DNA from: Anaerolineae bacterium
GTDB taxonomy: Bacteria > Chloroflexota > Anaerolineae > UBA1429
Reading direction: 5' to 3'
Assembly (NCBI GenBank): GCA_049975585.1
Contig: JBNGEB010000001.1
Location: forward strand, 7,992 to 58,897
DNA: 50,906 nt
A program made the translations under genes and the position numbers. How positions within the stretch are numbered: the first letter of the stretch is position 1; each line of letters starts with the position of its first letter. The notes beneath the pieces were generated by a model. It ran no database searches. It had not been told where the DNA came from and worked only from the letters and a program-made list of their open reading frames with translations. Below, piece after piece: positions 48,223 through 49,436 of this stretch.

Positions 48223-48732
48223 CTATTCCACGACCTCGATCTCGACGACTTGCGAGATCCAATAGCTGGCCGACAAGCCCGGGACGACCATGCGAATCGG
48301 CCCGTCCTCTGGATCGTCTGCAAGCCACTCCCCGTCGCGCCGGATGCCGACCATCGCCACCTGCAGATCATCGATGGAGGCCTCGCGCCAGTAACCATCG
48401 GCGCCGCGAAAGATCACCCCGGTCGCCTTCTTGGAAGCGCCCGCCTCCTCCAGCAGGTCCACTAGGGCGATGCCTTCCCAAGCGTTCTCGGTCTCATCGC
48501 CGCAATCACATCGCTCTAGGATATCATCCAACTTGACCAACTCGCGGGATGCGAGCTCTTGATACGCCAATGTCATGGGCTCACTGACCGCTCCGCTGAT
48601 ACGGAGCTCCCAAGAGACCTCTGGTAGGTCGGACGTATCGACCGTGACCGATTCGAAACGTTCCCTAGCGCAACCCGCCAGGGTTGACGCCAACACCAAC
48701 AGAACGAGCAAGACAAGACCCTTGCGCCGCAT
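48223..48732 (-). CDS. Lipoprotein consisting of a single small SUOX-fold (Oxidored_molyb/YedY-like) domain, paralog A
   Basis: Signal peptide plus lipobox MRRKGLVLLVLLVLASTLAGC. Then WELRISGAVSEPMTLAYQEL...CDCGDETENAWEGIALVDLLEEAG...VIFRGADGY...DGEWL...GPIRMVVPGLSASYWISQVVEIEVVE. Confidence 0.7.
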   Translation of the reverse strand: MRRKGLVLLVLLVLASTLAGCARERFESVTVDTSDLPEVSWELRISGAVSEPMTLAYQELASRELVKLDDILERCDCGDETENAWEGIALVDLLEEAGASKKATGVIFRGADGYWREASIDDLQVAMVGIRRDGEWLADDPEDGPIRMVVPGLSASYWISQVVEIEVVE

Positions 48733-48959
48733 GGCGTATCCTCACTCCTTCGTGGACGACGACACATAGAGACCCAGCCCCAACACCCCACCCTGGGATG
48801 AGGTCCTGCTACGCGCCACCGCGTTGCTGCAAACGCGAGCCGGACACGGCCCCGACCGGCACTCTCGCCATCGGGTCGTCCTCGAGAGAACCCACCATAG
48901 CCCGAACCGCGTCCGACTCGTGACGCTCTACCCAACTACCCGTCCATCCAGATGGATAG

Positions 48960-49436
48960 TTACTCTACGACCTCGATCTCGACGAGCTGACCAACCCACC
49001 GGCTCGCAGGAAGCCCTGGGATAACGATGCGGATGGGACCTAACTTTTCGTCGCCCAGCAGCGATTCGCCGTTCTCCTTCAGGGCGACGATGGCATCGCC
49101 CACGTCCGCCAGATCGACCTCGCGCTCGTAGCCATCGGCAGCGCGAAAGATCACGGCGCTAGCCGCGTCAGAGACGCCGGCCTCGTTCAGCAGCTCGCTG
49201 AGGGCAACGCCTTCCCAGGTGCTGCTGGTGTCCTCCCCCTCCGATCGGTCCATCAGCACGTCATCGAGCGTTGTCTGCGTGCGGCCAGCCAGGTCGTCGT
49301 AGCTGACCGTGAGCGGCTTGGACACCGCTCCCGAGACCTTGAGCTCCCAGTCCACCTTTTCGCCGCTGGAGCATGAAGTCAGCGCCAAGGCCAATGCCAC
49401 CAAGATCAGCAGCCCAGCAAACATCCGACGTCTCAT
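48960..49436 (-). CDS. Lipoprotein consisting of a single small SUOX-fold domain, paralog B
   Basis: I prefer the start MRRRMFAGLLILVALALALTSC at 49436, which follows AAGGAGG. Then WELKVSGAVSKPLTVSYDDL...TWEGVALSELLNEAG...VIFRAADGY...NGESL...GPIRIVIPGLPASRWVGQLVEIEVVE. There is no cysteine at the position of the CDC in paralog A. Confidence 0.7.
   Translation of the reverse strand: MRRRMFAGLLILVALALALTSCSSGEKVDWELKVSGAVSKPLTVSYDDLAGRTQTTLDDVLMDRSEGEDTSSTWEGVALSELLNEAGVSDAASAVIFRAADGYEREVDLADVGDAIVALKENGESLLGDEKLGPIRIVIPGLPASRWVGQLVEIEVVE

Follow-up and report, generated by a model that had tools for sequence, protein, structure and literature searches.

The 50,906-nucleotide (nt) stretch of Anaerolineae DNA analyzed here (contig JBNGEB010000001.1; hereafter the window) carries two tandem genes that encode small lipoproteins, paralogs A and B. 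Each protein contains a single domain related to the molybdenum cofactor (Moco)-binding domain of sulfite oxidase (SUOX), and both are referred to below as mini-SUOX lipoproteins. The B and A genes are read from the minus strand behind a riboswitch of the RF01055 family. A second transcription unit, which is preceded by another RF01055 riboswitch and encodes an energy-coupling factor (ECF) importer, is read from the plus strand and is convergent with them. The original prediction for this stretch had correctly chosen the two small lipoproteins as its subject but missed the riboswitches, the adjacent ECF importer and the conserved operon partners, a context that turns a two-protein curiosity into a candidate transport system. 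The two units contain the following features.

44393–44512, plus strand: RF01055 aptamer without P3 (Tuco-type, for the tungsten cofactor) in the leader of the ECF operon (Rfam cmscan, 63 bits, E = 7e-13)
44509–44553, plus strand: GC-rich hairpin behind the aptamer, a candidate terminator or expression platform of the ECF leader by inferred function (RNAfold, -32.4 kcal/mol, z = -3.1)
44566–45939, plus strand: ECF S-component (YkoE-like, six transmembrane helices) with a seventh transmembrane helix and two degenerate extracytoplasmic SUOX-like domains (PF09819, 61 bits; PF00174, 31–34 bits)
45943–47391, plus strand: fused double ATP-binding cassette (ABC) ATPase, YkoD-like A-A' (two PF00005 domains, 190 bits), whose gene adjoins that of the S-component at about 20 loci
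47388–48173, plus strand: ECF T component of the CbiQ family (PF02361, 88.6 bits; conserved synteny)
48223–48732, minus strand: paralog A, a mini-SUOX lipoprotein of 169 amino acids (aa) whose hairpin, the site of the Mo-ligand Cys in enzymes, has a conserved CDC (PF00174, 60.7 bits)
48960–49436, minus strand: paralog B, a mini-SUOX lipoprotein of 158 aa and of the main family type (hairpin LM[EDQ][KR]S.GED, no Cys; PF00174, 76.9 bits)
49487–49527, minus strand: strong hairpin followed by UUUGUGU, a candidate intrinsic terminator or expression platform of the B-A leader (RNAfold, -41.8 kcal/mol, z = -5.6)
49529–49668, minus strand: RF01055 Moco riboswitch aptamer with P3 (Moco-type) in the leader of the B-A operon (Rfam cmscan, 70.7 bits, E = 4e-15)

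The open reading frames of A and B were found on the minus strand where the original prediction had placed them, and its description of two lipobox-bearing, single-domain SUOX-type proteins agrees with their Pfam matches. Both proteins cover positions 10–161 of the 169 positions of PF00174 (Oxidored_molyb; cut-off, 24 bits). At each N-terminus, a short n-region with basic residues leads into a highly hydrophobic h-region and a lipobox (LAGC and LTSC, respectively). The motifs that had been quoted for the domain are present as described (WEL.(I/V)SGAV, W.G(I/V)AL..LL.EAG, VIFR.ADGY, GPIR.V.PG and VEIEVVE). The hairpin reads ERCDCGDE in A and DRSEGEDT in B, in line with the reported CDCGDE of A and the Cys-free SEGEDT of B. 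The B gene begins with the ATG at 49436. An in-frame ATG further upstream (49463) is an unlikely start because an AAGGAGG Shine-Dalgarno sequence is located 8 nt before the ATG at 49436.

Paralogs A and B share 52% identity over 132 residues without gaps (E = 6e-47). The 19-nt identical stretch at the 3' ends of their genes, from which a local duplication had been proposed, is real (48230–48248 in A and 48967–48985 in B), and a run of 19 nt or more has a probability of about 0.005 in a simple model that preserves the identity at each codon position. However, the stretch encodes a common and conserved C-terminal peptide (VVEIEV), and the nucleotide identity of the whole genes is only 59%. For comparison, 44 loci from species-representative genomes and six further contigs were collected (loci are numbered with the prefix L). 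A-type and B-type proteins form separate conserved lines of orthologues in several species (L004–L007 and L049); therefore, the duplication is old, and a recent tandem duplication was ruled out. The 227-nt spacer between B and A contains no element detectable with Rfam, and the spacers of five loci align poorly. A hidden RNA element in the spacer was thus dropped as a candidate.

A and B are cut-down copies of the Moco-binding SUOX fold. The AlphaFold2 model of B (mean predicted local distance difference test score, pLDDT, of 85) comprises approximately 130 domain residues behind the signal peptide. In a Foldseek search, the model retrieved the Moco domains of SorA, SoxC and YedY with E values of 2e-9 to 1e-7. 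The same search retrieved PruR structures with E values of 1e-7 to 1e-6 and TM-scores of 0.67–0.74 when normalized to PruR, which has the same size. The proposed identity as a truncated SUOX fold is therefore upheld by structural comparison, with SorA, SoxC and YedY on top and PruR in addition. By sequence, the similarity to PruR is marginal (E = 0.098), and the five best sequence alignments from the PDB are to SorA and SoxC. PruR was also not among the best alignments listed in a PDB sequence search with a homolog from Runella. NCBIfam gave only sub-threshold matches for A and B (SorA, SoxC, MsrP and the 'GEGP diheme' family).

The family of A and B is large. A profile search identified more than 1256 relatives, nearly all from metagenome bins of Anaerolineae or Chloroflexota, and the closest genomes are those of uncultured Anaerolineales. 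The relatives are lipoproteins with one domain (~159 aa) or two domains (~281–300 aa); forms with three and four domains also occur. At their source they are labeled 'molybdopterin-dependent oxidoreductase' or 'YedYZ catalytic subunit'.

The two paralogs differ at the position of the Mo ligand. In a MAFFT alignment with Escherichia coli MsrP, the hairpin aligns without a gap, and the column of the Mo-ligand Cys of MsrP contains the first Cys of the ERCDCGDE motif in A and an Arg residue in B. The earlier observation that A has a Cys in the Mo-ligand region and B has none thus extends to the very column of the MsrP/YedY ligand. B represents the main type of the family, in which the hairpin motif LM[EQD][KR]S.GED is free of Cys; more than 100 relatives have a Lys or Arg residue at the ligand column. 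In the A orthologues of five other loci (L004–L007 and L049; 57–86% identity), the motif ILE[RA]CDCGDE is strictly conserved. Many B-type proteins carry a Cys residue elsewhere, in the sequence GPIRLVCP, and a CxxC motif is found in 73 of the 82 two-domain proteins of the family. Paired thiols thus appear to be a recurring theme in the family. The second mini-SUOX lipoprotein or second domain in most other loci also has a conserved CxxC (for example, QACADCIV), at a position that differs from that of the CDC of A; such second lipoproteins are encoded at L001:8561-9043, L002:8577-9035 and L051:16844-17296.

The architecture of A and B is not that of a SUOX enzyme. SorA, SoxC, MsrP/YedY and sulfite oxidase share with A and B the fold, the Pfam family, the motifs W.G..L, DGY, GP.R.V.P and W and, in the case of A, the Cys of the ligand column. 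However, the enzymes contain 260–370 residues, compared with ~130 residues in the domain of A and B, which lack the N- and C-terminal catalytic segments and the dimerization domain. A and B align to SorA residues 69–223 only; the two proteins end one residue later, and the mature N-terminus is located 5–17 residues ahead of the aligned region. The segments that contain SorA Arg55/His57 and Tyr236 (Arg55 and Tyr236 are named in the titles of mutant PDB entries) are therefore absent. Relative to MsrP, A and B are without ~65 N-terminal residues, ~70 C-terminal residues and a 19-residue insert.

The export signals point in the same direction. Both signal peptides begin with basic residues that had been taken as a hint of export by the twin-arginine translocation (Tat) pathway. 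Across the family, a lipobox was observed in 110 of the 110 members with an intact start, and an RR pair was observed in only 12 of the 110. The n-region has a median length of 4 aa, and the hydropathy of the h-region is 2.7, compared with 1.1 in the Tat signal of E. coli MsrP. Tat export was rejected on the basis of these family-wide statistics; the signal peptides are predicted to be of the general secretory (Sec)/lipoprotein type, in contrast to the Tat signals of the SUOX enzymes. Cytoplasmic insertion of Moco is the rule for periplasmic molybdoenzymes, and the Sec route moves unfolded chains. The domain would therefore be exported unfolded, without cytoplasmic loading of Moco. Given the Sec-type signals and the missing catalytic segments of SorA, it is very unlikely that either A or B works as a canonical Mo enzyme. 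The original prediction had doubted this role for at least one of the two and had considered a binding role plausible; the truncated fold and the type of export now make non-catalytic binding the best reading for both.

PruR of Agrobacterium tumefaciens (Atu3496; PDB 7KOS, 7KOU, 7KOM, 7KP2 and 7RKB) provides a precedent for such a role. PruR is a periplasmic protein that consists only of a truncated SUOX fold, lacks the Mo-ligand Cys and was experimentally shown to bind pterins without being an enzyme (PMC11194511). In PruR, a Trp residue replaces the Mo-ligand Cys and the hairpin is shortened; the pterin is accommodated between a conserved Tyr and a conserved Trp with a hydrogen bond from an Asn residue (PMC11194511). 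Like PruR, the mini-SUOX proteins are small, secreted and built of the truncated SUOX domain alone, without catalytic partner domains, and the B-type proteins lack the Mo-ligand Cys (Foldseek TM-score, about 0.7). They differ from PruR in their lipid anchor, in the occurrence of the domain in one to four tandem copies and also fused to a transporter, and in their host (Chloroflexota rather than Proteobacteria). Moreover, their hairpin has the full length of that of MsrP, with no gap, and displays motifs of its own (S.GED or CDC) instead of the Trp. The partner of PruR is the cyclic di-GMP enzyme DcpA, whereas the partners here are an ECF importer and Moco/Tuco riboswitches.

Both riboswitch aptamers cover positions 1–135 of the RF01055 model (gathering score, 36 bits) and are located directly upstream of the first gene of their unit. 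In the B-A leader, the candidate terminator hairpin was matched in stability by none of 200 shuffled sequences. The hairpin of the ECF leader has a weak U-tract and is followed by a GGAGGA ribosome-binding site and the ATG at 44566. Folding of the whole B leader also produced a long-range pairing that involves the ribosome-binding site and a P1 strand; this pairing was not trusted. Among the compared loci, an RF01055-family riboswitch precedes the S gene in 15 of the 19 loci in which that region is present. P3 is absent from all 14 of the S-gene riboswitches that were aligned and present in all seven riboswitches that precede B orthologues in the clade of the window (including L005–L008, L010 and L030).

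The P3 distribution follows a known division. Regulski et al. linked the RNAs that contain P3 to Moco genes and those without it to genes for the tungsten cofactor (PMC2408646). They also noted an unexplained exception, two P3-less RNAs in front of 'putative sulphite oxidase' genes of S. wolfei (PMC2408646), which constitute the nearest precedent for the present arrangement. The riboswitches of the window resemble those of the known RF01055 regulons (moaABCDE, modABC, tupABC and W/Mo enzymes) in their full-length, high-scoring aptamers and in the same division by P3. The difference lies downstream, where the ECF importer and the mini-SUOX lipoproteins are not among the regulon members listed in three papers (PMC3766115, PMC2408646, PMC11725836).

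Three of the four riboswitch-less loci, which represent two genomes (L001 and L016 on the same contig, and L002), instead contain a divergently transcribed GntR regulator; L018 has neither. The sensor domain of this regulator matches the periplasmic binding protein (PBP)-like C-terminal domain of a MoeA-type molybdopterin biosynthesis protein with 206 bits.

The ECF operon (44566–48173) encodes an importer whose S-component carries the same domain as its lipoprotein neighbors. In the AlphaFold2 model of the S protein (pLDDT, 83), the helices of residues 16–183 are followed by an additional transmembrane helix (residues 198–221) and two β domains (residues 228–341 and 345–456). The first Foldseek match of the model was YkoE (PDB 5EDL; TM-score normalized to the target, 0.76), followed by SorA, YedY and PruR. 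The two β domains complete the set of four domain copies that had been counted in the original prediction. The S-component has no match in NCBIfam, and at least 519 homologous clusters exhibit the same length and architecture.

The importer resembles YkoEDC of Bacillus subtilis. Both systems have dedicated S, fused A-A' and T genes, and the S cores are related (25% identity; PF09819), with the structural similarity given above. Both are also governed by a riboswitch for a related cofactor, thiamine pyrophosphate at ykoE and Moco/Tuco here. The importer of the window differs from YkoEDC in its extra transmembrane helix, its two extracytoplasmic SUOX-like domains, the separate lipoprotein copies of the domain and its substrate-binding residues. 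The YkoE thiamine ligands Tyr46, Trp49, Glu77, Gln95 and Asp131 correspond to Ala57, His60, Glu88, Gly106 and Gln142, respectively. Only one of the five ligands (Glu) is retained, and Gln95 at the floor of the YkoE pocket is replaced by Gly; on the basis of these substitutions, the cargo is not thiamine.

The linkage between the lipoproteins and the importer is conserved. In every Anaerolineae locus with sufficient flanking sequence, the lipoprotein genes adjoin the S-YkoD-CbiQ genes or two genes that recurrently accompany them, and the linkage recurs in about 20 species-level genomes of Anaerolineae. The first recurrent partner is a membrane-anchored protein of ~280–310 aa with an N-terminal transmembrane helix, one or two CxxCH haem c motifs (C.ECH...C..CHDDHG) and two weak SUOX-like repeats; it has no match in Pfam or NCBIfam. 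The second is a lipoprotein (lipobox LLVAC) whose N-terminal ~170 aa form an unassigned domain; it also has a domain of the alkaline-phosphatase superfamily (Phosphodiest/Sulfatase/Metalloenzyme). Examples of both, from loci other than the window, are as follows.

L001:5837-6766, L002:5842-6768, L051:14102-15010 and L050:15583-16422: CxxCH partner
L001:6795-7961, L002:6778-8004, L050:16445-17641 and L051:15014-16186: alkaline-phosphatase-superfamily lipoprotein partner

The linkage of mini-SUOX, ECF and riboswitch elements is specific to the Anaerolineae clade. Distant mini-SUOX loci (L031–L047; Actinomycetota, Runella, Proteobacteria and other Chloroflexia) contain neither ECF genes nor riboswitches, and a wider association across phyla was ruled out on these grounds.

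A pterin-type fold stripped of its enzymatic parts, export through the Sec route, copies of the domain fused to the S-component, the conserved linkage and the Mo/W riboswitches together suggest extracytoplasmic capture for an uptake process that is tied to the supply of Mo/W cofactors. Our preferred interpretation, which we hold tentatively and at somewhat less than even confidence, is that A and B are PruR-like non-catalytic extracytoplasmic modules that feed an ECF importer regulated by the Mo/W cofactor, with a pyranopterin cofactor or its fragment or precursor as the cargo. A and B would be exported by the Sec system and lipid-anchored at the outer face of the membrane as ligand-binding modules, alongside the two homologous domains fused to the S-component. 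They would capture the ligand and pass it to the S-component, and ATP hydrolysis by the double ATPase would drive import. The cargo may be Moco/Tuco, molybdopterin, or a fragment or precursor thereof, scavenged from anoxic surroundings. The intracellular level of the cofactor would set the expression of both transcription units through the riboswitches. By analogy with other pairs of cofactor riboswitches and ECF importers, an adequate supply of the cofactor would repress expression. The operons of most related genomes encode two further proteins with possible roles in this process: the alkaline-phosphatase/nucleotide-pyrophosphatase-superfamily lipoprotein may remove dinucleotide or phosphate groups, and the haem c (CxxCH) membrane protein with its weak SUOX-like repeats may hold a labile ligand in the reduced state.

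An organic cargo is favored for three reasons: the fold is one that binds pterins; a vitamin-type ECF importer combined with the matching riboswitch is a familiar pattern; and the phosphodiesterase-like and redox partners suit a labile ligand that is phosphorylated or a dinucleotide. Vitamin-type ECF importers controlled by the riboswitch of the matching cofactor are an established pattern (PMC3766115). A more far-reaching version of this interpretation describes the system as the first bacterial salvage importer for the Mo/W pyranopterin cofactor (or molybdopterin) and as the first case of an ECF transporter equipped with binding domains outside the cytoplasm. The system would capture the cofactor released by other cells in anoxic habitats, the pyrophosphatase-like lipoprotein and the haem and Fe-S partners would process and reduce it, and the Moco- and Tuco-type riboswitches would act as off-switches. 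We regard this version as less likely than not, although its chance is substantial.

Several points weigh against cofactor uptake. ECF substrates are normally unphosphorylated, and molybdopterin bears a phosphate group. The window itself is devoid of the haem-motif and phosphodiesterase-like genes. The Cys of A at the ligand position and the recurrent Cys pairs could support direct metal chemistry. The family has an invariant D-G-Y and, further on, an invariant W, with the Tyr in a column shared with MsrP, and the likeness to the pterin-stacking residues of PruR is one of motif order only, not of superposed structures. The PBP-like sensor of the GntR regulator in the riboswitch-less loci, which is of the molybdate-binding kind, would fit the sensing of an oxyanion. 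The characterized transporters under RF01055 control all carry molybdate or tungstate rather than the cofactor, and RF01055 also precedes genes for enzymes that use Moco (PMC2408646). Finally, free Moco is very labile, and a bacterial Moco importer is not known (PMC9026282).

In a second explanation, which we consider rather unlikely though the strongest competitor, the architecture is the same and the cargo is an oxyanion. The SUOX-like domains and lipoproteins would bind tungstate and/or molybdate for the ECF importer and thereby constitute a new route independent of ModA, TupA and WtpA. Control of the transporter would fall to the P3-less (Tuco) switch and control of an A/B pair that adds specificity for molybdate to the P3-containing (Moco) switch, an assignment that agrees with the absence of P3 from 14 of 14 S-gene riboswitches and its presence in those of the B-A units. 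The conserved Ser and acidic residues of the S.GED motif are located on the hairpin where the metal sits in the enzymes. In archaeal WtpA, carboxylates coordinate W or Mo. The core of the S-component is lined by invariant His, Lys and Arg residues, Cys pairs are found in the A- and B'-type proteins, and the GntR regulator of the riboswitch-less loci has a sensor that resembles both the MoeA C-terminal domain and SBP_bac_11. RF01055 classically controls the oxyanion transporter operons modABC, tupABC and wtpABC (PMC2408646, PMC11725836). However, the extracytoplasmic lipoprotein of the phosphodiesterase family and the redox proteins have no obvious role in oxyanion import, and the S-component belongs to the vitamin family (YkoE) and not to the metal family (CbiM/NikM). 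Furthermore, we know of no ECF transporter for anions and of no SUOX-fold protein that binds a free oxyanion.

In a third explanation, A and/or B, and the related haem-motif protein of other genomes, would be minimal exported redox enzymes of the SUOX type, similar to MsrP/MsrQ or SorAB. Electrons would arrive through haem, a Mo/W-pterin would be bound to the A-type Cys, and the riboswitches would couple production of the enzyme to the availability of the cofactor. The conserved Cys of A in the ligand column of MsrP is consistent with this arrangement, an outward flow of electrons is suggested by the CxxCH partners and by a Fer4+CCG membrane protein, and RF01055 RNAs also precede genes of Moco-using enzymes, including the P3-less RNAs before the S. 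wolfei 'putative sulphite oxidase' genes (PMC2408646). Nevertheless, the Sec/lipoprotein signals do not allow export of a folded, cofactor-loaded protein, the proteins lack the SorA segments with the catalytic Arg and Tyr as well as both terminal parts of MsrP, and B, like more than 100 relatives, has no ligand Cys. This explanation would also not account for the close association with an importer that carries the same domain on its S-component, and we consider an enzymatic role improbable. Least likely is a role of A and B as PruR-like sensors of excreted non-Moco pterins (monapterin or neopterin) in signaling rather than transport: the truncated SUOX fold, the similar size and the missing ligand Cys of B are shared with PruR (PMC11194511), but the sequence similarity is marginal (E = 0.098), the Cys position holds Trp in PruR compared with Arg in B and Cys in A, and the neighbors are the ECF importer, the Moco riboswitches and a ChlI-like AAA+ gene, with no DcpA-type diguanylate cyclase/phosphodiesterase or histidine kinase adjacent.

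ECF importers are normally described as operating without extracytoplasmic binding proteins, and capture by A and B would challenge this textbook view with either cargo. To our knowledge, the only documented uptake of Moco is that of dietary Moco in nematodes. Our literature searches returned no link of an ECF transporter, an S-component or a mini-SUOX protein to Moco riboswitches, no S-component for molybdenum and no description of a bacterial Moco importer. Cells are usually said to depend on their own synthesis of Moco, and a review states that most organisms are unable to acquire it as a nutrient (PMC9026282). The parts of the present system are known (the SUOX/PruR fold, the ECF importer and RF01055), and their combination appears to be undescribed. 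If cofactor uptake is correct, bacterial cross-feeding of the cofactor would become directly testable, and a handle would be gained on the passage of Moco through membranes. With tungstate or molybdate as the cargo, the system would represent a new class of W/Mo transporter, and the SUOX fold would for the first time be seen to serve as a solute-binding protein. The arrangement would also explain the exception in the original Moco riboswitch paper (PMC2408646). In addition, the annotation of more than 1000 Chloroflexota proteins that are now called 'molybdopterin-dependent oxidoreductase', 'DMSO/TMAO reductase YedYZ catalytic subunit' or 'thiamin/HMP transport permease' would be corrected.

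Additional genes accompany the system in individual loci. In one locus, a gene located between those of the T component and the haem-motif protein (L050:13622-15586) encodes an HdrD/DsrK-like membrane protein of 654 aa that contains Fer4 and CCG domains. A ferritin gene flanks the system in riboswitch-less loci (L001:393-860 and L002:435-902), and L001 also contains an iron-type ABC importer and a DtxR-family repressor (9121–13791). 'Iron' ABC transporters are reported to be under Tuco riboswitches in Eubacterium limosum (PMC11725836). At the Runella zeae locus (L035:7878-11511), a distant secreted mini-SUOX protein of 164 aa is encoded between a TonB-dependent receptor and a dihaem cytochrome-c-peroxidase-like gene, without a riboswitch; here, too, the domain occurs together with an uptake protein and a dihaem protein.

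Further riboswitch-associated elements were observed in the compared loci. Genes at L009:6331-6741, L029:7110-7517 and L013:3289-3672 encode a small cytoplasmic protein that is internally duplicated, contains conserved Cys...CQLG(L/C)F motifs and belongs to no Pfam family. An RF01055 riboswitch immediately precedes this gene, which in L013 is located before the ECF S gene. In six loci (L015:1311-1449, L019:7962-8100, L020:12727-12865, L024:11488-11626, L025:2131-2269 and L026:10986-11124), the mini-SUOX lipoprotein genes are followed within a few kilobases by a cobalamin riboswitch, so that cofactor-related units cluster there.

The remainder of the window contains other gene groups. A ChlI/MoxR-like AAA+ gene (49789–50898, plus strand, continuing past the end of the window) is divergent from the B leader, and this arrangement is maintained in L005–L008, L030 and L049. 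A role of the gene product as part of a cobalt chelatase was rejected; in L049 (15118–17138), the next gene encodes a VWA-domain protein and not CobN, and the AAA+/VWA pair was treated as unrelated. A separate ECF module (33345–38638, plus strand) consists of two ATPases, a CbiQ-type T component and an S-component of the PF12822 family; the genes for type III pantothenate kinase and CoaBC come next. This module, which has the same order in L049, is probably a pantothenate importer encoded with coenzyme A biosynthesis genes. The order of the ATP synthase genes at 11664–18246 (plus strand) is unusual and recalls that of N-type ATPase operons: the gene for a beta-like subunit comes first, and those for a, a b/delta fusion, alpha and gamma come after it, with a VIT1-family gene behind them. 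A cluster at 3945–11253 encodes a RACo-type corrinoid reductive activator, a methyltransferase, an OpuAC-like binding protein and an MtrH-like pterin-binding methyltransferase; it looks like a corrinoid-dependent methyl-transfer set, possibly with glycine betaine as the substrate.

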